This document shows, piece after piece, positions 5,773 through 51,600 of a DNA stretch of 64,000 bases. The stretch is from Paraspadella gotoi (Eukaryota; Animalia; Chaetognatha). The position numbers and the translations under genes were made by a program. The DNA lies in assembly GCA_051294375.1 (NCBI GenBank), contig CM119270.1, forward strand, positions 2,356,388 to 2,420,387, in the 5' to 3' direction. Positions within the stretch are counted from its first letter, which is position 1, and each line of letters opens with the position of its first letter. Under the pieces are notes generated by a model, which saw nothing but the letters and a program-made list of their open reading frames with translations, made no database searches and was not told where the DNA came from.

Positions 5773-6367
5773 TGTAGATATGGCGAAAAGTAATGCACTT
5801 TGACGCCAGATCCTAAGGACGCGTTTCGACGAGCAACTGGAGGTGTTAGAGGCGCTGCCGAAGGTCGCAGTGAAGCGGGAGACTCTGGGGGACGTTGACC
5901 GGAAGTTACGCCAAATTTGGCGCGTGTGGCGTAAAGGAATCGGGAGGCGAAGCTTCGACCGAGTTTAAAAAGGGAGTAGTCTCCAGAGTTGATTATAAAA
6001 GTTTCAGTAACCAACTTATTTGGTTATTAGCATAAAAGAAAGAACCTTAATAAAATAATCAAAGCATAAAGATATTCCATCTGCTTTTGCCATCAAGCAA
6101 TTAGAATATCTATATGAAATAATAATAATGCAATTAATTATTCGATTAATCATAACAATCAATAATAATGAAAATAGTGAAACAATTGTTGAGACTACTC
6201 ATAGGTAAAACATTGCTGAGTAGTTCTGGCAAGTTCTTTAGTTTGTAAATAAGATTTAGAGGCTAGATGGAATGGATATCAACTAGAAGAATCAGCTGAT
6301 AAATCGAATTGAATCGGGTTGCTCATTTGTTTATGAAAACAAAAGATAAAAGAATTCAAATCCCACA
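5773..6367. mobile_element. Solo LTR (Ty3/gypsy-like)
   Basis: TGT...ACA ends, 4-bp TSD AATA, absent from the duplicate segment (~16277); contains TATAAAA and AATAAA on the + strand. Confidence 0.75.
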
Positions 6368-9300
6368 AATATTTTAATTAATTAGTTAATTAATAAATTA
6401 ATTAAAGTGAAAAATGATGTAATTTGAAAAAATGATGCAAGTTAAAAAAATGATGCAAGTTAAAAAATTAATTATTAACCTATATATTTCGTCAAAACAC
6501 AAATTCTCAACTTTTCCCCAAGGCTCTTTTGTTCTTTTTTGCGGACACAGAAAAGGCCTCTGTTCTAGCGATCACAGCGACATATTTAGTTGTAGAAAAT
6601 GTTTATCATTTTCTATGCCTCGAGGGTCGCGCGTTTTATTCATCGGCCATAGGTTGAACTGGCTTTATCATGGAGCAAGGTTTTCTAAATCTTGAATGTC
6701 GTAAATGTCGAATAAATGACGAATAAATCTCGAATAAATTGTGCATAAGTTTATTTGTTGTAGAAGTAAATAAATAGCGAAATTAATGTCGTACAATAAA
6801 TTGGTGTAGAAAATCCTTAGATTCCGTAAAAACTATGGTTCCATACAGCCGATCTTTTCCAGAGAAACGATTTTGATTGAATGACAAGTGACGATGTTTT
6901 CGGCCGAAAGAAAGCCACAAGAAAGCGACAAGAAAGCAACAAGAACGGTGAAAAGACTGGTCTGAAAAGGTCAACTTAATGACCAGGGAAAAATGACCGG
7001 ACGCGAGGTCACAAAATCTTTCATTAGTTACTATTACGTACTAAGGACCTTAGTAAGGTTTATACCAAGGTTCAGTATTTCGAGGCTGATTCTGATTGGT
7101 TCCCATGATTTCGATGGATTCTAATCGAATTCTGTCCACGTGGAATCTTCAAGTCTTTTAGCTTTTAACTGCGTTTTTTATTGCTTTCTCTAGCAATTAA
7201 AACCTTGAGATATCTCGGACTTCACTTATTTTTAGTAAGATTTGTGATCGCTGGATTGGTGGACTTATCTGAGAGAAGCAACTCTTTATTTGCATTACAT
7301 TGACTTCAGAAACAAGTAAGAAAATACACTTTAAACTTATATATATATTTGCTGAGTTTTGTATTAAATATTTTCTTCCTTTGACCCAGGGCTTCTAACA
7401 CAACAACATTCAAGCACTTGCTTTCGTCAAGCCCTGGGCTTCGCAGATCGTGGTTCCTCGGCCTTAGCCGACGTCATTTTGCCGAGACTTTGACGTCATC
7501 ATCTCTAGGGCGTTTTCAGCGGCGCCATCGTCTCTTCTGCGCCATTTATTGTCGAATTCCTTTTGTCTTGAATGCGTAGAATAAGCTCAGACTGTTAGAA
7601 CTCTAGGACAGCCACTTCTCAGAACTAAGTTCGAAACAATGCGAGTTAAAACAAGTTTGAGCAAACAATATCGGATCTGCCTACGATAAATAAGCGGTAA
7701 TCAGATAATCAGATGATAAATCACGATAATTCTTTCAATTTGTGATCCTAACTGATCATAACATACCAAACCAACTTGCATAATTTTTTAACTCGCATCA
7801 TCTTTTCAATTTGTATCCTTTTTTCAACTTCCATCATTTTTTTCAAATTGCATCATTTTTAATTTAATTAATTAATTAATTAATGTTTTAATTAATGTTT
7901 TAATTAATTAAATAATTAAAACATTAATTAAAACCCTTTTATAAAATTTTTTGATGAAAATACAAAACATTGATTTTTAAAAATCACCATTTAATAGAAA
8001 ATGCACTTATTCATCAAGTAAGGTGTCCAACATGTACAGTTTTTTTCGCTTTAATGATTAAAACTGGTTTAGTTTAAGTATACTTAATGCCCTTTGAGAT
8101 ATTGAAGAAATGCCATAATTTTTCAGTTTTTAAGCATTTTTTGAAAAGTTGGCAGCATTTCCCATAATTTAAAAAAAAAAAGAAATATTGTAAAACATCC
8201 GCGCATGTATGAAGCTCGTTTTGAGCCCTACTACTAAGCTGGATCACAAACTTCCAATTTTCTGGCAAGGTCTATTGTCCATGTGGTAGCGTAAAGACAA
8301 TACTTCGCGAAAATATTGAGAAAAGTCGACGCAATCATAAAAAGAAGCGAAAGAAAAAGAAGAAACAATTGGCATATTTGACATAATGCAAATTCTGTCT
8401 TCATCATTCAAATCGAAGCGAGCTGAATATTTTGTTCTTGAAATCAATGAAGGAGCGACTCTTCTCTTTGACTACGTAGTGTCACCTCGTATCTTATTTT
8501 CCATCAATTTGCCGGAGGAGATTAGGACATTGAGGTCTTTACCAGATCATATTTATGACAGCCAAAGAAACACACTTATCATTTTTTTTTGTGGAATTAG
8601 AAACAATAGAAAATGGGGAAATAAAATGAACTTTTTCGAGGTCGCCCCATTTCGGTTGCTTTATTTATTATAACGCAATCCCTAATTTTTAACCCTAACT
8701 CCTGACCCTTAACTAATCCTTAACCTACAAAAATCAGAAAATTTTTGGTTTTAGCTGACTGCATATGTATGCACATTAACAGTCTTACTAACTACCTAAC
8801 TACCAGATATGAACGCAATATTACCCGACATATGAGCATTTAAAACTTACGTCGGATAGACCATCCAACTAACCAACCAACCGAATGACCAAAAAGTGAC
8901 TTATAGGGTTTTACCGCAAATATTTGCGGCGCAACTAAAAACTTAATCCCTAATTTAATCCTTAATTCTTACATCTACCCTAATATTTTAACCTAAAAAT
9001 TAATTCAATTATAAATTTGAGGGGAAATGGGGTGTTCTGGGAAAATAAGGTCGATCTTGAATTAACATTTTATTTCAAGAATAATATTACTCATAATATT
9101 ACTCATCATGACTTATCATCTGGTTACCTGCTTACTGCTAAATTATCATAGGCAGATCCGACATTGTTTGTTCAAACTTGTTTTATGATTACACAATTGA
9201 AGCATGAATTGCAAGATTAAAAAGCCAAAAATACCTATAGAGAAGGGCAGTTATGATAGATCATAAGAGCCCTTCTCAATTGTCTGTCCCGATTCTTGAA

Positions 9301-10332: not shown

Positions 10333-10589
10333 TGTGGCAGCAAGACTTAAAGCTGCCTCACTGCTGTCCGTCCGCAGCCTCGTCTCAATGGCTGAGCAGG
10401 CTAAATCATCTCATTTCATCCGTGCGTCCCGGGTTCAATCCCTGGGTATCCCGGTTCTGGCCTAAATGTGACGGTGACGGTATAAACATGCCAGTGACAG
10501 GAGGCGGTCACTGAGGGTCCGCAGCCCCTACGCCAGTTGGTGAGATACCCCGCGCCCCGGGTATCACAGGCTATCCTCCCGTTGCCATA
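10333..10589 (+). mobile_element. Family B LTR-like element (tRNA-like + twister), nested in a hAT MITE
   Basis: TGTGGCA...TGCCATA termini, TSD CTAC; near-identical copy at 59582-59829. Confidence 0.88.
10457..10536 (+). ncRNA. Twister ribozyme (family B)
   Basis: Same elements as 59697-59776; P1 is TGACGGTA (one mismatch). Confidence 0.82.
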
Positions 10590-15419: not shown

Positions 15420-16944
15420 AGAGAAAAAATATATAAAGCTTCCAACACAAAGTGAAAAGGACAGTGGTCAGATTGAGGACAGGTGAAGGTAAGGGGAGAG
15501 AAGAAGAGGAAAGTGGTTGAAAAATGAATGGTGAAATATTGATTCATTTTTCAACCACTTTCCTCTTCTTCTCTCCCCTTACCTTCACCTGTCCTCAATC
15601 TGACCACTGTAAGGCTTAAAGGCAAGAGCCGAAACATGTCCCAATTGTGAATAAAAATCGTTGTTTACAAACAAACAAACTTTGTTTTCTCTAAATAATT
15701 AAATACAACGAAAAAGAAAGGAAATAATATAAAGATAAATTATGCAAAAAGAAAGATGTCCGTCCGTCCGTCTGTCTGTCCCTCCGTCCCCCATAGCAAA
15801 AAACTCCAATTATTAGTGATTGGATGGATGGCTTAGAATGAAATTTTGTGTGTGGTTAGGAAAGTGTTTGATTGATGGAATCGTGCGAGTGGAAATGAGT
15901 TTAAATGTAAAAAACAAGTTTTATTTACTTAAATTTTTTAAATAATTTTAACCTAATTTTAAATAATCATAATTGGATGGATAGATTGATATGAAATTTT
16001 GTGTGGTTAGGAAAGTGTATGATGAAGCTGGATATCAAGTTTCGAAGGAATCATGCAAGTGGAATTGAATCTTTTTACTAATTTTAACCCATAATTACTC
16101 GAATTAATAATAATTGGATGGATAGATTGAGATGAAAATATTTGTGTGGCTAGGAAAGTGTGATACTGTGATTGAGCAGGATATAAAATTTCGATGGAAT
16201 TTGGGAGTAGAAATGAGTTTGCTTGGCAAAAACCAGTCAAGTTTACTTGAATTTTTATTACTTATGCTTATTCACAAATATTTTAATTAATTAGTTAATT
16301 AATAAATTAAATTAAAAGTGAAAAATTGAGATGTTATTTGGAAAAAAATGATGCAAGTTAAAAAATTAATTATTAACTAAGCTATATATTTCGTCAAAAC
16401 ACAAATTCTCAACTTTTCCCCGATGCTCTTTTGTTCTTTTTTGCGGACACGGAAAAGTCCTCCGTTCTAGCGATCACAGCGACATATTTACGTTGCGTTA
16501 GGAAAATGTTATCATTTTCTATGCCTCGAGGGTCGCGCGTTTATTCGTCGGCCATAGGTTGAACTGGCTTTATCATGGAGCAAGGTTTTCTAAATCTTGA
16601 ATGTCGTAAATGACGAATAAATCTCGAATAAATTGTGCATAAGTTTATTTGTTGTAGGTAATAAATATGCGAAATTAATGTCGTACAATAAATTGGTGTA
16701 GAAAATCCTTGTTTCCGTATAACTACGGTTCCATACAGCCGATCTTTTCCAGAGAAACGATTATGATTGAATGACAAGTGACGATGTTTTCGGCCGAAAG
16801 AAAGCCACAAGAAAGCGACAAGAACGGTGAAAAGACTGGTCTGAAAAATTCAACTTATTGACCAGGGAAAAATGACCGGACGCGAGGTCACAAAATCTTT
16901 CATTAGTTACTATTACGTACTAAGGACCTTAGTAAGGTTTATAC

Positions 16945-17178
16945 TAAAGAGACAGTAATTATTGTTATGTGTTAGTGACAGAACCGTTCAATATAAGCAG
17001 TCCCTGAGCTTCGGATCAGGCTGTAACACCATGTTACAGGCGGGTTAAGCGCCCCGTCCCTCTTAACTGCCAGACGACCACCGGGCTAGAACCCCGGACG
17101 TTTGGGTTGGTAGGCGAATGACTTGCCTCTGGCACCAATGGCCGCTGATGAACGGTTGGTGGATTTTAGTCCACCATA
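16945..17178 (-). mobile_element. Family A solo LTR (tRNA-like + twister)
   Basis: Homologous to the 21471-22141 LTRs; TSD ATAC; empty site visible in the paralogous duplicated segment at ~7062. Confidence 0.9.
16997..17070 (-). ncRNA. Twister ribozyme (family A); further copies at 19530-19603(+), 21532-21606(-), 21958-22031(-), ~26253-26326(-), ~56404-56477(+)
   Basis: GCAGT-TAA-GAGG-GA-CGG-GGCGCT-TAA-CCC-GCC-TGTAAC..GTTACA-G-CCTGA-TCCG-AAGC-TCAGG-G-ACTGC. Confidence 0.82.
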
Positions 17179-17471
17179 ATACCAAGGTTCAGAATTTCGA
17201 GGCAGTGTTCGGCTGATTCTGATTGGTTCCCATGATTTCGATGGATTCTAATCGAATTGTGTCTACGTGGAATCTTCAAGTCTTTTAGCTTTTCACTGCG
17301 TTTTTTAGTGCTTTCTCTAGCAATAAAAACCTTTAGATATCTCTGAATTCACTTATTTTTAGTAAGATTTGTGATCGCTAAATTGGTGGACTTATCTGAG
17401 AGAAGCAACTCTTTATTTGCATTACATTGACTTCAGAAACAAGTAAGAAAATACACTTTAAACTTATATAT

Positions 17472-19442: not shown

Positions 19443-19690
19443 TATGGTGGACTAAAATCCATTGGTGCCGGAGGCAAGTCATTCGCCTCCCCACCCAAAG
19501 GTCCCGGGTTCTAGCCCGGTGGTCGCCTAGCGGTTAAGAGAGACGGGGCACTTAACCCGCCTGTAACATGGTGTTACAGCTTGATCCAAAGCTCAGGGAC
19601 TGCTTATATTGAACGGTTCTATCACTAACACATAACAATAATTACTGTCTCTTCATTGGTGAGCCTGACTTCCGAACACAACAGCAACAA
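19443..19690 (+). mobile_element. Family A 5' LTR plus PBS and truncated interior
   Basis: LTR 19443-19655 followed by TTGGTGAGCCTGAC and CAA-rich interior; 3' part lost at a deletion relative to the other duplicate copy. Confidence 0.85.
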
Positions 19691-19989
19691 CAACACTGAT
19701 GATAATGACAACGACGACAATGATGAAGATGATAATACTGATGACTATGATGATGATAGAATCAGTGTTAAAGGAGGGAATGAGGCGTTGCTATGGTGAT
19801 TTCTGTTGTGAATGAGATGGAATCGAGAAAAGATGCGAGATTATTTTTTTAAAATCAAGTGGGAGTGGAACGTCATCTCTCTCTCTCACTCTCTCTTTCT
19901 CTCTCTCTCTTTCTCTTTCTCTCTTCCCTATTAGTTTCGAGAGTTCTCATCCGCTCGTTCCCAAAGGGGAATACCGATTTCTTTTTGAT

Positions 19990-20033
<44 letters not shown>

Positions 20034-21470
20034 ACTCTCTTTTTCTCTCTTTCTCTTTACTCAGAATAACCAACCCTTATTACCTCCTTCTCTCCAAAAA
20101 TACATCAGATCCGCAGCAGTGAAGCAGCGACGCAAGTAAAGGAATATCCGCTGCTGACTTTCGACTTCACCAGCTGACGATACTCTCAACGATTATGCTT
20201 CAACAGACGGCACTGAAAAAATTATGGCGCCTCCGGTTGATGGCACTGCAAACGGATGATGCTTTAAACTGACGGCACTGCAAACATTGCCTCTAAATCG
20301 TGGCACTTCAGACTACCGGCGCCTTCAACTGGCCCTGAAAACTAACAGCGCCTCCAACCGACGAAGCTTCGATCTCATCGGCACAAGCAATCGGCCACAC
20401 TGGATAACCACGTCACATCAAGCCGTTAAATCGTTGCTTAGCAACGACTTGCTGCATACTCAAGGAACCGCAATTTCATTGTGATTGATTTTGTTTACTA
20501 ACAACGCAGGGGAATTAGCCTCACCAAAAACCAAACCGGATCATAGGATCGGGGTGTATGAAATGCTAACATAGATGTAATATTATTTTTACTATATGTA
20601 GTTTAAACTAGTATATTTAATTATCATTTCCAAATGAAATATGTTTAGCTATATACATTATACAAAAAAAAAGAATATATATTATAAAAAATCTTTTTTT
20701 GGCACATAAACAAAGTAGTTGATAAAAATTAACTAAAATAGCTTCCACTACATACGATTTAAACACTTTGAAACATTGATAAATTAGACAGATAATAAAA
20801 AACAAATAGATCTATAAACAGAAAAAAACAGACAAACTGACAAACCGACCGACCGACCGACTTATAGAGTCTTTCCACATGCGCGCGACCGAAAAATAAA
20901 AAAAACTAAACCGGGCGTCGGTTGGAAACTTGATTGAAATTGGCGCTTTTGTTTCCCGACTTCAATTAAGCGCGCGTTTTATCGTCATTCGTCATTTTCG
21001 TTTTTCCTTCGTTGATGTGGAAGGCGAGGGGGGAGGGAGGGGGGAATGATAGGGGGGGGAGAAATGATTAGAGATGTGTGTGTGTGTGTGTGTGGCGAGA
21101 TGAGACGTGGGTTTTTGTGTTGGCTGAGAGGTGGATAGGAAGGATGTTCCGATGAAGGAAGGATGTTGTTGAAAGCGTTGGAAATATTACCACGCCTATT
21201 AAGGTATTTAAAAATAACAAAATGTAACAAATCGAATAAGGTACATAGCTATTTTTGTATAGTTTCTTCTTCTTTGTCGGAAATGTCGATTTTTGCAGCA
21301 TATAAGGTACTATTCAAATGGAACAAACGTTGGTGAGTATAAAAAACTCAAATTATTAGAATTTTATAAAAGCCATATTTAGTTTACATAATATAAAAAT
21401 AAAATTCCATATAAATATTTTGGTAAGTTTATTTACAAATTTTATATTTTATTAACTGTTTGTTAACTAT

Positions 21471-22141
21471 TGAAGAGATAGTAATTATTGATAAGTGTGA
21501 ATGACAGAACCGTTCAATATAAGCACTTTAAGCAGTCCCTGAGCTTCGGATCAGGCTGTAACATCCGGTGTTACAGGCGGGTTAAGCGCCCGTCCCTCTT
21601 AACTGCCTGACGACCACCGGGCTAGAACCCCTGGACTTTGGGTTGGGGAGGCGAATGTCTTGCCTCCAGCACCAAGGGCCGCTGATGAAGGTTTTGGTGG
21701 ATTTTAGTCCACCATACATCCCCCATCCCGTAGGAAGAAGTCTGTTGCGTCTCTTCAGTGAATTGTTGTTGTTTGGTGGAAAGTTCGTCACCAAGTTGAG
21801 GGCATGTTGCCTGATGTGTTGGGGGTGGAAAGTGCATCGCCAGGTTGAGGCATGTTGCTTAAAAGTGTTGTTTTTGCTGTTGTGTTTGGAAGTCGGGCTC
21901 ACCAATGAAGAGATAGTAATTATTGATAAGTGTTACTGACAGAACCCTTCAATATAAGCAGTCCCTGAGCTTCGGATCAGGCTGTAACACCGTGTTAGCA
22001 GCGGGTTAAGCGCCGCCGTCCTCTTAACTGCCAGACGACCACCGGGCTAGAACCCCTGGACCTTTGGGTTCGGAGGCAAATGTCTTGCCTCCGGCACCAA
22101 TGGCCGCTGATGAAGCGGTTGGTGGATTTTAGTCCACCATA
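21471..22141 (-). mobile_element. Complete non-autonomous miniature LTR retroelement (TRIM/retrozyme-like), family A
   Basis: Direct repeats 21471-21716 and 21906-22141 (TATGGTGG...TCTCTTCA on minus). PBS TGGTGAGCCCGAC lies just inside the 5' LTR (21892-21904). Purine tract GGGATGGGGGATG abuts the 3' LTR. Non-coding interior is 189 bp. TSD CTAT on both sides. Confidence 0.92.
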
Positions 22142-23044
22142 CTATTATTTATTTATTATTAAATAATAATAAAAAATAAGCTAAAGTAAAAAAATTAAAA
22201 TTTGTTTATTAGGGTGGAGTGATGAAAATATTGAGTGATTGAACATTTACTCCCTATGGATATATAATCAATGAATTTTAAATCCTTTTAAAAATATTTT
22301 TAGCATAACAGTATAGTAAATTCAATTATTTATGTAGTAATATCCTTATAAATTTGTTAAATTTCAAAATATTTTTATTTTATTTTTAAGAACAGATTTG
22401 GATTCGCAATAAAAAACTAAGAAACTTTTATAAAATATGTTATATGATATTTTAATGTTTAAACCGCAAAAAATTACTAAAACGTTTTAATATATATAAG
22501 TTTATACTACAGAGAGTAAAAAATTGATGAATTTTTATGAAAATTTGCAAATTACTTGTTTCACTATTTTCTATTTTTATATTTTATGAAGGATTTATTA
22601 TTTAATCTATATTATTTAAACAAATATATATTGCTTTCTTTTTTAAAAATATCTTATTTATCTAATAATTTAATTTGGGAAGGGGAAGTCAGTGTTGTTT
22701 TCTGGAAATAGAGGGAGCATCTATATTTTTTCTCGTTTTAAATGCTGAAGATGACATAATTTTTGATAATATGTTTTATATTTTTGATTCAATAATCTGA
22801 ATTTTTAATAAAGTTAATTTACTATTTTATAAGAATATTACTACAAATATATTATATTTTACTATTCTGTTCCCAAGACAATAAGAACATAATATTTTTT
22901 GTTCTAGTTAACCATACTATATCACATCTAAATATCCTTGTTCGATCATTCAAATAATTTTTTTGTTCTTGAGTGCTCCACTCTATTGTTTATACTAAAA
23001 TAGCTATGTACCTTATTCGATTTTTTATTTTTTGTTATTTTTAA

Positions 23045-26192: not shown

Positions 26193-26442
26193 TGAAGAGA
26201 CAGTACTTATTTAATATAATGTCTGTTTTAATGACAGAACCGTTCATTATAAGCAGTCCCTGAGCTTCGGATCAGGCTGTAACACCATGTTACAGGCGGG
26301 TTAAGCGCCCCGTCCCTCTTAACTGCCAGACGACCACCGGGCTAGAACCCCGGACCTTTGGGTTGGGAGGCGAATGACTTGCCTCGGCACCAATGGCCGC
26401 TTCGATGAAAGCGGTTGTGTGGGATTTTTTAGGCTCCACATA
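26193..26442 (-). mobile_element. Family A solo LTR
   Basis: Homology to family A; TSD CTAT. Confidence 0.88.
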
Positions 26443-28509: not shown

Positions 28510-31500
28510 TCAATCCTTTTTAATACAACCAAATGTACCACCGACAGAGCGATAACCAGCTGGACATTTCTCACAGTAGTTTCCATTGAGTCTTGCAACA
28601 GATCCTTCTGGGCATTCTCTACAAGGGGACTCGTTATTGAGTTCTTTTGCTCGATCAAAGTAGTGATTAGCTTTGTTGGTACAACATTCCGAGGGTTCAT
28701 TTTTTATTGTGGCTAAATTTGGAAAACCTTTTTTCTCTGTCTGGCAGATTTTAATTTGTGCTTTGAGGGAAAGTGGAGTTACTGGAAACATTTCTGGGAT
28801 TTCAGGAATCTCTTGATAGTCAAAGTCGAGCCTCCACCTGGACATTAGATTTGGAAATATTGGTCCAGGGAAACTTCCTGGCTTGATCACACACAGTTTG
28901 GCCAATTTTGCTGGACAAAAGAGTAAATTATATGGATTTTCACGTCGGTCGGGACAAGTGACATCATTTAATACCAATCGAGTTTCTAGGTTGACAGGTT
29001 CTTCAAAGGTGTACGAAATTCCATTTAGGCGAGTTTGTAACATTGTCATAGAAGTGGAAATCTCTGCGTGCTTATTTATAGTTAATGGAAATGGATAAAC
29101 TGACATTTCTGTAATGAAGAAAGGCCAGTTTTTATTGATTTGATCTAGAGAGAGCCATCCATTTTGAACTAACCAATTTTTATCAGGTACTTGAAAAAAA
29201 AGTGAGCTTTTTTTACTCTTCTTGGATACAGCCATTACTGAAAAAAGGTCTAAAGTGCCATTTGGTAGTCTTTTATTTTCTCTTGATATTCCTACAGGTA
29301 TATCAACTATTTTATTAATTATATGACTTTTGGGACACATACTGTATTCTGTTCCAGATTCAAAACCACTATAATCAACTAGTCCAAGCATACTCTCATC
29401 TGGGTTTTTCTTTAATTTTGTGCAGACTGGCTTTTCAATTCCATGCTCCATGTATGTTTGCATATAACAAGCACCATAAATGAGTGTAAGTTTATGATTT
29501 CGTATTAGAGCAAATGCATTAAATTTAGCTATTTCCAAGTCGACTTCTTCTGATAAACCAAACTTAAATCGTTCCCCTAATTTTTTAGCAGAGTCCTGAG
29601 CCAATTTTGCAGCAGCTATTGCTTTCAGAACTTTATCATAATCTTCTTCAGTTTCTGCAAATTTTTCATAATAATGAGTGAAAGCTGCCAACTCTTCTTT
29701 GGCCCTTGGACAGTCTCCGTCTCTTACTTTTGCTGCCTGCACAGTTCCACTTATGAGACTACCTCCCTCAGAGAATAATTCACAAGCTTTGTCAATTATA
29801 TAATCAAATTTAGCTAGCATTCGTGCAAAATCTGCAGATTGGAAAGAAGAAGTAACGCCTGTTCCTACAGCCACAACTCTTTTTGCGTCTTCTAAATTTA
29901 TGCTAACATCTGCTCCTGCTTTTGCAATGTTGGCCATAGACTGGTATAACTCTTTGTTTTTGTCAAAATTTTCTTTTATCTTATCACTTAACTTTTTTAT
30001 CTCTGGAAGCTCACTATTTAAAAAGGCCAAATGACCAAAATTGACAGCCGCATGCATCGCTCGACCCAATTCAGCATTAAGCTGAATTGCTGAATCAGCA
30101 TAGTCGCCTGGTGCTATCTCAGTCTTATAGAAGGAAAGCGCAGCCAGAACAATCATTGCCAAGGCGTCCGCCAACTCTCCTGCAACACTTCCAGTTGCTG
30201 CAGAGAACAAGTCATTGACTCGCGAGCTTAAAGCAGTGGATGTAATAGAAAGCTGCTTATCAAAAAATGCCCAGTTAGCTTCTAAATCATTGTATTCAGC
30301 ATTGAGCTTTTCTGTATCAAATTCTGCTATTTGGGAGAAGTATTTCGATAACTCTTGCTGAAACTTTCCTATTGTCAGCTTAAGATCTCCCAGTTTTGTT
30401 TTCAGTTGGTTATAGTTGTCTTTCATATATTGATGCTTGAGTCTCTCAGCATAGTTGATTTTCATGGATAGTATAGGTCTGGGATTCGGCTTTTTCAGCA
30501 TCATTATTGCATCCTCAAAGAAAGCTTTGATGCTACAGTATTCTTTATAATCGGGAAGCCCTTTACTGCAGTCCCAGTGATAACAAGTCTTCATCAAACT
30601 AGCTTTCGCTTCTTTTACGGAAGCTAAGATATCATCAATGGACGGCGACATTCGAACCATTTTAAGGATTTTCATGAGCATTTCAGGTGTGCATTTAGCA
30701 CATTCAACTCCAACAACTTTACTGCAAGTAGGACCAACAGTCATTGAACATTTTTTTATAGAATTTTCTCTCCCATCATAGCATTGCATGTTTTTTATGT
30801 TAAATTTCCCATTATGACTCTTTGTATGAGTTTTGTAAACGGGAACTATTCCATCTCGCTTTAAAAATTGTTCCCCTTTTAAAGAGTTACAAAGAACAGC
30901 ACTCTCTTTTGGTCCCCAGTTTTCATGACAAAAGTAATAATAATTAATATGTACTACCCAATTATTTTTCTGAGCTAAAAGATTAGTGTCGAGGCAAGCA
31001 ACACCAGCTTGATGATTTGACCCACAATTGTTACTGGTTTTAAACTTACATAATAACAATTTTGAAGCATACTTGTTACATTTCACATCAGACATTATGA
31101 AATTGTCCTTAACAATTCCATAGTAGCCTCCAGTGAAGGGAATGGCCTTTGTTTTTTCACTAAATCCTACAGATTTACAGGCGACATATGCATCACTTTC
31201 TTCCCAATTCTTATCACAGATTGGACGCCCACCGACAATAACATTTCCTTCCATTTTTTTTCCATCTTTTGCCACTGATTCAAATATTTATTAATAATTA
31301 ATAAATTCACTTGTTGTTATAACGAAATTTTCGTTTTCTCTCTAAACTTCTTTATAAACAACAAAAAAGAAAGATCAAATACAATGTCTACTAAATAATT
31401 AACGTACTTTAATTATACATAAAAGAGCAAAACTAAGTTTTAGTATGGTATTTAAGCACAATATAAACTGGTGGTCTAAAAAAAATTTACAATCTACCTA

Positions 31501-48657: not shown

Positions 48658-51600
48658 TCATTCTTCGACGCAACCAAATGTACCAGGAGCTGATTTATAA
48701 CCAGCTGGACATTTTTCACAATAATTTCCATGAAGTCTCGGAACGGATCCTTGTGGACACTTCGTGCATGGCGAAAGGTGAGAAAGTTCTTTGGCTCGAT
48801 CGTAGTAATGTTTCTTTTTGTTGACGCAACATTCCGCGGCTTTTTTCTCCATTGGTTCCTCCGATCTTTTCAAAAGTTTTCTGTCCGTTTGACACATTTT
48901 GATCTGCGCTTTGAGATAAAGCGGAGTTTCTGGAAACATTTGCGGAATTACGCGAATCTGGTGGAAATCAAATTCTATTTTCCACTTGGACATTAGATTT
49001 GGAAATATGGGACCGTCGAAACTTCCCGGTTTAATCACGCAGAGTTTGTCGAATTTCTCTGGGCAGAAGGGCAAATCGTAGGGACTCTCTCGTAAATCCG
49101 GACAAGTAACGTCATTCAACGTCATGCGGGTTTGCAAGTTGACCGGTTCCTCGATCGTGTATGGAATTCCGTTCAGCCGAGTTTCTAACATTGTCATGGT
49201 AGTGGAAATCTCTGCTCTCTTATCGATGGTAAACGGGAAAGGATAAATTGACATTTCTGTGATGAAGAAAGGCCAGTTTTTATTGATTTGATCCTGAGTA
49301 AGCCATCCGTTATCAACCAACCATTTTTTGTTGGGCACTTGGAAGAACAATGAGCTCTTTTTATCCTTATTCAACACTGCCATAACTGAAAAAAGATTCA
49401 GGGTACCATTAGGTAACTTTTTGTTGTCTTTCGATACTCCCACGGGTATATCGACTGTTTTATGAATGATTTGGCTCTTGGGACATGCCACATCCGCTCC
49501 TGGCTGAAAACCGGTATAATCAATTAATCCTAGCATACTCTCGTCTGGATTTTTCTTCAATTTTTTACAGACTGGCCTTTCGATGCCATGCTCCATGTAT
49601 GTTTGCATGTGACAAGCGTCGTGGATGAGAGTAAGTTTATGATTACGCATGAGAGCGAAGGCATTAAACTTAGCTATTTCCAAGTCGACTTCTTCCGATA
49701 AACTGAACTTAAATCTTTCCCCTAATTTTTTAGCAGAGTCCTGAGCCAATTTTGCGGCAGCTATCGCTTTTATTACTCCATCATAGTCCTCTTCAGTTTC
49801 CGCTAATTTCTCGTAATAATGGGTTAAAACGGCAAACTCTTCTTTAGCTTTGGGACAGACTCCTTCTCTAACGCCTTTGGATTGAGCCATTCCGCTCAGC
49901 ATGCTTCCTCCCTCGGAGAATAACTCGCAGGTTTTATCGACGACAAATTCTAATTTCGCGAGCATTCTCGCGGAATCAGCCGATTGGAAAGAAAGCGTCA
50001 CGTCGTTGCCAACGGTGACGACTCTCTTGGCGTCTTCCAAATTGATGCGTCCGCCAGCTCCCGCCTTTGCGATATTGGCCATTGATTGGTATAAAGCTTC
50101 ATTTTTGTCCACGTTTTCTCTAATATTGTTGCCCAACTTTTTAATCTTTGGAAGCTCATCTTTCAAAAATTTTAACCATTCGATGTTGACGGCCGCCCTG
50201 GTTGCCCGACCGAGTTCGGCATTGAGCTGAATTGCCGAATCGGCGTAGTCGCCCGGCCCCATCTCAACTTTTTTGAAGGATAACATAGCTAAAACCACCA
50301 TGGCTAATGCATCAGCCAGCTCTGTTTCGACGCTGACAGTCGCTGCCTTGAACAACTCATTGACGCGCAGGCTTACTGCAGTGCCTGTGATGTCGAGCTG
50401 TTTTTCATAAAAAGCCCAGTTAGTTTTTAAAACTATGTAATCAGCGTTGAGCTTTTCCGTGTCAAACTCGGCAATTTTGGAGAAATATTTGGATAACTCT
50501 CGCTGAAACTTTCCAATTGTCAGCTTCAGATCTCCTAATTTTAATCTCAACTGGTTAAAGTTGTCTTTCATGTATTCGTGCTTGAGTCTTTCAGCATAGT
50601 TGATTTTCATAGATAGAATTGGTCTGGGACTCGGTTGTTTCAGCATCAGAATCGCATCCTCAAAGAAAGCTTTGATACTACAGTATTCTTTATAATCGGG
50701 AAGCCCTTTACTGCAATCCCAGCGATAGCAGGTCTTCAATAAACTAGCCTTTGCTTCTTTTACCGAAGCTAAGATATCATCAACCGAGGGCGACATTCGA
50801 ACCATTTTAAGTATTTTCATCAGCATCGGTGGGGTGCATTTAGCGCATTCAACTCCTACAGCGCGACTGCAGCTTGGGCCGACACTCATTGAACATTTCG
50901 CGATGGAATCTTCTCTTCCATCGTAACAACGAGTGTTTTTAATGTTAAATTTACCATAATGACTCTTTGTATGAGTTTTATAAACGGGAACTATGCCGTC
51001 TCGCTTTTCAAATTCCTTTCCTTTTATAGTGTTACACAGAACGGCACTTTCTTTTGGCCCCCAGTTCTCATTACAAAAGTAATAATAGCCAACCCTAACT
51101 ATCCAATCGCTCTGGTGAACCAATAGCTTTGGATCTATGCAAGTGGCACCGGCTTGGCCATTAGGCCCGCAATAGTTACTTGTTTTAAAATCGCAAAGAG
51201 GCAACTTGGAATCGAATCTGTCGCAAACAACATCTGACATGATAAAATCGTCCCTTACAAATCCGTAATAACCTCCACTATGGGGGATGGCCTTTGTCTT
51301 ATCGCTAAATCCCGCCGATCTGCAGGCGACATATGCATCAGTTTCTCCCCAGCGAGTATCACAGATTGGGCGTCCACCAACGATCACGGTTCCTTCCATC
51401 TTGGTTCCTTTGTTTTTTACTGAATTTAAAAAAAAAGAAAAAATGATGAGATAATTTGGAATTTTACGATTAATTTAATTTTAATTTTCTTATACAAAAT
51501 TAGGCTAAATGATAAAAAAATTAAAAATTAAACAAAATTTGTTTATGGCTACCACGAGTGGATCAAACTACACAACTGAATACAAGGACGTGATAGGCTT

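Follow-up and report, generated by a model that had tools for sequence, protein, structure and literature searches.

The 671-bp sequence at positions 21471-22141 of the 64-kb stretch of DNA that was analysed (hereafter, the window) is a real LTR element and belongs to a mobile, high-copy family. Each LTR contains a tRNA-like segment followed by a motif resembling a P5-permuted twister ribozyme, and we estimate a probability of about one in two that the element is a twister-bearing, LTR retrozyme-like TRIM that moves via a 424-base RNA circle.

The element has CTAT on either side within the window and reads on the minus strand in the order 5′ LTR (22141-21906), PBS (21904-21892), internal region, PPT (21729-21717), and 3′ LTR (21716-21471), with features as follows:

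21467-21470, plus strand: left TSD, CTAT
22142-22145, plus strand: right TSD, CTAT
21906-22141, minus strand: 5′ LTR, 236 nt, with ends TA...CA
21471-21716, minus strand: 3′ LTR, 246 nt, with a 9-nt insertion relative to other copies
21892-21904, minus strand: PBS, complementary at 12 of 13 positions to the tRNA-Trp 3′ end
21717-21905, minus strand: internal region, non-coding, 189 nt, sense strand 64% A+C
21717-21729, minus strand: PPT
22035-22107, minus strand: tRNA-like segment of the 5′ LTR, with acceptor helix, T-arm, box B, and a weak box A; putative Pol III promoter
21610-21682, minus strand: tRNA-like segment of the 3′ LTR
21958-22031, minus strand: twister-like motif of the 5′ LTR, with damaged P2/P3, misfolding; predicted cut at 22008/22007
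21532-21606, minus strand: twister-like motif of the 3′ LTR, with intact core; predicted cut at 21584/21583
21584-22007, minus strand: predicted 424-nt monomer between the two cut sites

The longest ATG ORF of the element is a 94-codon frame on the antisense strand, and the PBS agrees at 12 of 13 nt with the tRNA-Trp 3′ end given in the supplement of Kojima. A first-pass annotation of this DNA had described a 671-bp non-coding LTR element with TSD CTAT, a PBS matching tRNA-Trp at 12 of 13 nt, and a PPT, and had placed U/A positions at 22008/22007 and 21584/21583, 424 nt apart. The element, the PBS, and the PPT are borne out, as are the coordinates and spacing of the U/A positions, at which cleavage itself is predicted. 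The element has the features of a TRIM (two LTRs, a length below 1 kb, non-coding sequence, a PBS and a PPT bounding the internal region, and a TSD), and it has the 4-bp TSD, PBS, PPT, and non-coding sequence of an LTR retrozyme. The LTR termini are TA...CA in the complete copies of the window, with one exception that ends in TA, and canonical TG...CA termini are absent. Alignment of the two LTRs gives 233 paired columns, of which 15 are mismatched, and 16 gap columns, indicating that this copy either is not a recent insertion or contains sequencing errors.

BLAST identifies four further LTR copies in the 64-kb window: three solo LTRs and one truncated LTR-PBS copy. A 4-bp TSD flanks all four complete insertions in the window. 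In addition, in a segmental duplication of ~1 kb (6364-7344 and 16273-17471), one copy contains a solo LTR and the other is an empty site:

16945-17178, minus strand: solo LTR with 4-bp TSD; intact motif at 17070-16997
26193-26442, minus strand: solo LTR with 4-bp TSD; intact motif at 26326-26253
56299-56529, plus strand: solo LTR with 4-bp TSD; one T1 mismatch
19443-19697, plus strand: truncated copy comprising a 5′ LTR with an internal deletion, the PBS, and ~42 nt of internal region; one T1 mismatch
7062-7065, plus strand: empty site with one ATAC, in the paralog of the segment that carries the 16945-17178 insertion

Contigs matching the solo LTR at 16945-17178 number 15,728 (run X1), 8,347, 2,625, and 989 in four public runs, in which contig depth is not equivalent to copy number. 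The flanks past the end of this LTR are unrelated among the public-run contigs, and, in run X1, 266 loose ends at one terminus of the LTR agree at only 0.45. Diverged public-run contigs bridge the LTR-PBS junction and the PPT-LTR junction, and no public-run contig spans the full 671-bp element. Many of the variants among the public-run copies are CpG transitions.

Comparison of nine further ORFs of the window with Pfam reveals no retroelement domain; a match of a capsid model to one poly-Arg stretch in a window ORF is below the cut-off and of low complexity and was rejected. Elsewhere in the window, two paralogous long open frames (28510-31287, minus strand, 925 codons, and 48658-51474, minus strand, 938 codons; 76.5% DNA identity) each encode an SRCR domain at the N terminus, followed by an uncharacterised body. 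Full-length homologs of this SRCR gene have ~30% identity, and the named ones, in two of the ten clusters examined, are hydrozoan; these homologs make an animal host probable but give no finer placement. A word-index search and the Atlas returned no match for the gene.

Read from the sequence, the tRNA-like segment has an acceptor helix of 7 bp and a T-arm of 5 bp, together with the box B GGTTC, and the acceptor helix reappears in the minimum-free-energy fold (z −2.4 and −4.8). For box A (TRGCY...YGG in Helenus), only a degenerate box is present at tRNA-like spacing, and neither ARAGORN nor Rfam calls the segment. In the segment at 22035-22107 (minus strand), the acceptor helix and T-arm still pair, and the D and anticodon arms are unpaired. 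The acceptor/T-arm half of a tRNA is the part recognised by RNase P and RNase Z, so that retention of this half makes processing at the RNA level possible besides promoter use. The window contains further tRNA-like heads whose box B reads GGTTC, at ~10377-10445, 59626-59695, 58979-59045, 41288 (minus strand), and 55907; these heads belong to at least two repeat families and are probably SINEs.

The element contains a single sense-strand T4 run, at 21864-21861, which had been raised as a caveat to Pol III transcription. The run is present, but it is private to the copy at 21471-22141: one of its A residues is G in ~99.9% of the depth of other copies in run X1, and the caveat weakens. Apart from this private run, the element has no sense-strand T4 terminator.

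The twister-like motif is P5-permuted and comprises a UAA cut loop, a GA strand, T1 (CCG with CGG), T2 (GC/GC), a 5-bp P4, an 8-bp P3, and a 7-bp P5. The motif is located at the same place in six of six window LTRs. In particular, the UAA cut loop and the GA general-base strand are kept in all six copies; T2 is kept in five of five distinct copies; and T1, by direct reading, is intact in four of six, a lower figure from the comparison of distinct copies being due in part to the placement of gaps. Comparison with the Rfam twister-P1 consensus and with the Schistosoma twister table reveals that both strands of T1 are changed relative to the consensus CCC/GGG, with pairing retained, and that the base of P3 is the same as in Rfam and Schistosoma twisters. 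The base of P3 is not used by the descriptor with which the motif was searched. The descriptor yields 4 matches in 1.415e9 random bases with the composition of the LTR and 6 matches in 1.56e9 uniform bases, corresponding to a chance rate of ~1-2 per million LTR lengths, a figure that is optimistic because P2 of the descriptor was relaxed after the sequence was known and because the controls were sequences of independent bases. Within the LTR, the descriptor matches the PBS-sense strand only.

Other features of the motif are non-canonical. The first-pass annotation had named the lack of a twister covariance-model hit as a result that would count against it, and Rfam indeed returns no twister match in four scans, including those of the element and of two solo copies at E≤10, in a search with a positive control for the P1 model only; two natural P1 twisters in the same Rfam mode score 41.6 and 37.4 bits (E 1e-7 and 1.7e-6). 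The 5′ strand of P2 has 3 nt, versus 4 in the consensus, and pairs at two positions with a mismatch, or at three with a bulge; the pair of P4 that closes L4 is A-U, versus G-C in the consensus; and P1 is nearly absent, with 1-2 pairs at most. According to review literature, changes in P2 length may disrupt the twister active site, and the G-C pair closing L4 is "essentially invariant". Type-P1 twisters tested in bulk are reported to tolerate imperfections in, and different lengths of, P1 and P2 well, and P1 is reported to be dispensable. In folding without pseudoknots, a competing helix occupies the T1 and P2 strands with a pair probability of 0.99, and opening this helix costs 7.5 kcal/mol, versus 1.5 and 2.4 kcal/mol in two natural twisters. 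The competing helix could be a misfold, an off-switch, or a real structure.

Variation among copies bears on the same question. Double-sided changes number zero among five distinct copies, so that there is no covariation. Among 40 of 72 variant rows, with three rows private to the reference copy dropped, non-CpG variants affect 1 of 35 core positions versus 18 of 159 other positions, a depletion that is not significant (p=0.11). A T1-breaking change at 17012 accounts for 13.3, 5.6, 2.2, and 4.2% of depth in four runs, and change at the site compensating it for 7.0, 1.5, 1.1, and 0.35%, the latter being rarer in four of four runs; both are CpG sites. The P5-permuted twister of the first-pass annotation is thus present as a motif, beyond chance by the descriptor, but is non-canonical and not recognised by Rfam. 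Its further caveat, that the ribozymes carry small indels, applies to the damaged 5′ motif but weakens in that other window copies retain an intact motif; the 3′ motif is intact as well. On these sequence features, the motif should be named twister-like, rather than twister, pending an assay of cleavage. No type III hammerhead match was obtained from Rfam for the LTRs, and a CUGAUGA on the plus strand, close to where the LTR ends, was rejected as a hammerhead by eye, with no GAAA after a stem II.

Searches of other collections yielded no natural P5 twister. In the metagenome scan, a tight pattern gave no matches and a loose pattern gave 77, one of which passed P4≥4 and P2≥2; none of 437 metagenome loci matched the element by BLAST. 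In the viral scan, the stem filter left 3 of 360 loci, and two of these three were compared with Rfam, one having two P1 twisters and the other having none. One contig of the viral collection (L323:129-228, minus strand) contains two tandem type-P1 twisters, 52 nt apart, both under the Rfam gathering score.

The closest published relatives in anatomy are Helenus elements (TRIMp3; Kojima 2024, PMC10886601), animal TRIMs described there as having tRNA-like LTRs, 4-bp TSDs, and Gypsy-type PBSs. Like Helenus, the element is short and non-coding, has a tRNA-like LTR sequence with a GGTTC box B, a PBS, and a PPT, and combines a 4-bp TSD with a Gypsy-type PBS in an animal, the primer being tRNA-Trp in some wasp families. 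Most published Helenus LTRs, judged by eye, stop soon after the tRNA part, often with a T-run, whereas the LTR of the element continues for ~130 nt containing the twister-like motif. The element also differs in its weaker box A and its TA...CA ends, yet some published Helenus LTRs start with TA. By eye, no published Helenus family in the compared portions of the supplement matches the element in sequence, and the portions of the article text at hand refer to ribozymes in one reference title only. Helenus LTRs of bivalves, nemerteans, and the coelacanth in the same supplement present, in many cases and by eye, a recurring CTAG-type hairpin and a GGGAA..TTCCC-type palindrome just upstream of box A.

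Two Helenus families of Synergus gall wasps provide a parallel. The LTRs of Helenus-2_SyJa and Helenus-2_SyUm (PMC10886601 supplement, DataS1) contain, by eye, a complete type III hammerhead after the tRNA-like part, with a GUC triplet, a 7-bp stem I, CUGAUGA, a 4-bp stem II, GAAA, and a 6-bp stem III. Loop I and loop II of this hammerhead share 12 complementary nt, and the motif is identical in both families. A text search of the supplement at hand with four CUGANGAG variants, in which line breaks can hide matches, found five places: the two wasp LTRs and three fungal places, not parsed as hammerheads. As in the element, the wasp families have a tRNA-Trp PBS and an LTR comprising a tRNA-like segment, a ribozyme-like motif, and a tail, and the 5′ ends of the LTRs look similar. 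Specifically, the supplement gives tRNA-Trp as the primer of Helenus-2_SyJa and of Gypsy-32_NVi. The wasp families differ in that their motif is, by eye, a type III hammerhead and not a twister, and in that their internal regions contain T4 runs. The presence of another ribozyme class in the same slot of an element with the same primer makes a function of the slot more likely. One review mentions forthcoming work on insect elements that carry type III hammerheads, and the wasp part may therefore be known to specialists.

In the preferred reading, that of a TRIM moving via a 424-base RNA circle, we infer all steps beyond the DNA anatomy. Pol III would likely start at the tRNA-like segment and, the T4 terminator being absent, would read through. 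Cuts at 22008/22007 and 21584/21583 would then release a 424-nt unit containing the PBS, the PPT, and one permuted LTR, and a host RtcB-type ligase would ligate this monomer; RtcB is reported to circularise monomers of animal retrozymes in vitro. Because the 424-nt unit would have no terminal redundancy, two LTRs could be rebuilt only from a circular or multimeric template, and rebuilding of this kind has been modelled for plant retrozymes. Reverse transcription would be performed by a CsRn1-like Gypsy partner: a Trp PBS and a 4-bp TSD are reported for the CsRn1 clade of Ty3/Gypsy, and the same combination in the element makes a CsRn1-type element the likely partner. The promoter would travel within the circle into every new copy, and the junction of the circle would have the same sequence as the genomic DNA. 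The circular fold of the monomer is not unusually stable (z −1.1, with 6 of 60 shuffles equally good).

An unlikely but serious alternative is that the element is a Helenus-type TRIM of the ordinary kind whose twister is a dead relic, derived from a tRNA-headed SINE or an RTE 5′ end, and that it moves through linear RNA and normal strand transfer. The short P2, the competing helix, the lack of an Rfam match, and the non-significant selection on the core all favour a relic, and such an origin would accord with the proposal in PMC10886601 that Helenus arose by SINE insertion into a TRIM LTR and with the reported location of twisters at the 5′ ends of RTE-type and Perere-3 elements, whose P3 resembles that of the motif. 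However, the motif is P5-permuted and the twisters of the Schistosoma table are P1-type; the motif retains its two pseudoknots and every catalytic nucleotide, and each strand of T1 departs from the consensus; and a hammerhead, by eye, occupies the same LTR slot in the wasp families.

We consider it improbable that the ribozyme is active but serves as a 3′-end former, the first copy often being left uncut via the competing helix and the cut in the 3′ LTR yielding a linear RNA with ~100 nt of terminal redundancy, from the tRNA start to the cut site, for conventional reverse transcription. The strength of the alternative helix and the absence of a family-wide sense-strand T4 terminator fit such a role, in which 22107-22008 would be a normal R region; but the two ribozymes are identical at the outset, so that selective cutting would require a context effect, and the plant LTR retrozyme RNA of inter-ribozyme size described in PMC4918200 consists of circles and linear monomers. 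Least credible is a non-twister four-way junction, with two 8-nt loops able to kiss (GCUU/AAGC), used by the Gypsy partner as a packaging or dimerisation signal, since this structure, although it has the lowest energy among the folds of intact copies (z about −2) and its loop complementarity is visible in the sequence, leaves the T1 complement, the UAA/GA spacing, and the match to the twister P3 base unexplained.

Returning to the preferred reading, the analogy with retrozymes drawn by the first-pass annotation holds, with the LTR, PBS, PPT, and TSD anatomy confirmed. The plant LTR retrozymes described by Cervera (2016, PMC4918200) likewise have a PBS, a PPT, a 4-bp TSD, and solo LTRs, with a ribozyme in each LTR, and share with the element a presumed Ty3/Gypsy partner. 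The plant elements have a type III hammerhead and a tRNA-Met PBS, whereas the element has a twister-like motif and a tRNA-Trp PBS; the passages on the plant elements at hand mention no tRNA-derived promoter. RNA of inter-ribozyme size is reported to accumulate as circles and linear monomers in the plant case, and circles of 600-1000 nt are demonstrated there, whereas the 424-nt circle of the element is predicted from DNA. The literature at hand describes LTR retrozymes mainly from plants, with hammerheads, and animal retrozymes as non-LTR repeats.

The twister-like motif shares with twisters of Rfam clan CL00120 and the T-variants of Schistosoma Perere-3 (PMC8501958) the catalytic nucleotides and the two pseudoknots, and has a similar base of P3 and joining strand. 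Unlike those twisters, it has a short P2 and an A-U closing pair, and, whereas the Perere-3 twisters are reported as P1-type and located at the 5′ end of a non-LTR element, it is P5-permuted and inside an LTR. The hammerhead repeats of Schistosoma described as SINE-like combine a Pol III/tRNA-derived promoter with a self-cleaving ribozyme, and their cut monomer has the promoter at its 3′ end, both as predicted for the element; unlike the element, they are non-LTR tandem repeats without a PBS or PPT. Further literature for comparison, as far as its contents were at hand, comprises PMC11662667, PMC5408937, PMC7761336, PMC5680766, PMC6765202, PMC7229834, PMC2582038, and bioRxiv 10.64898/2026.07.22.740005. 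The literature searched, with subscription journals mostly and Repbase wholly outside the search, yielded no description of a twister in an LTR or of a ribozyme in Helenus.

The "new system" of the first-pass annotation is therefore overstated: an LTR with a tRNA promoter is that of the published Helenus, and a tRNA/Pol III promoter with a ribozyme is known in the Schistosoma SINE-like repeats. The tRNA-in-LTR part is already known in kind, and the unreported part is the ribozyme motif. More broadly, we tentatively propose, at somewhat worse than even odds, that animals have LTR retrozymes of their own: tRNA-Trp-primed, Pol III-driven TRIMs with a swappable ribozyme slot, occupied here by a short-P2 twister variant and in gall wasps by a type III hammerhead, that form small circular RNAs and hijack a CsRn1-like Gypsy element. 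A cleaving twister in an animal LTR would, if true, mean that circular-RNA retrotransposition also occurs in animals and with a second ribozyme class; it would provide another concrete genomic role for twisters, with ribozyme classes swappable in one slot, and a natural P5-type variant with which to probe the tolerance of the twister core for a short P2. In relation to known systems, the element bridges Helenus and the plant LTR retrozymes: it fits Helenus by definition, and it functions as an LTR retrozyme if cleavage holds.
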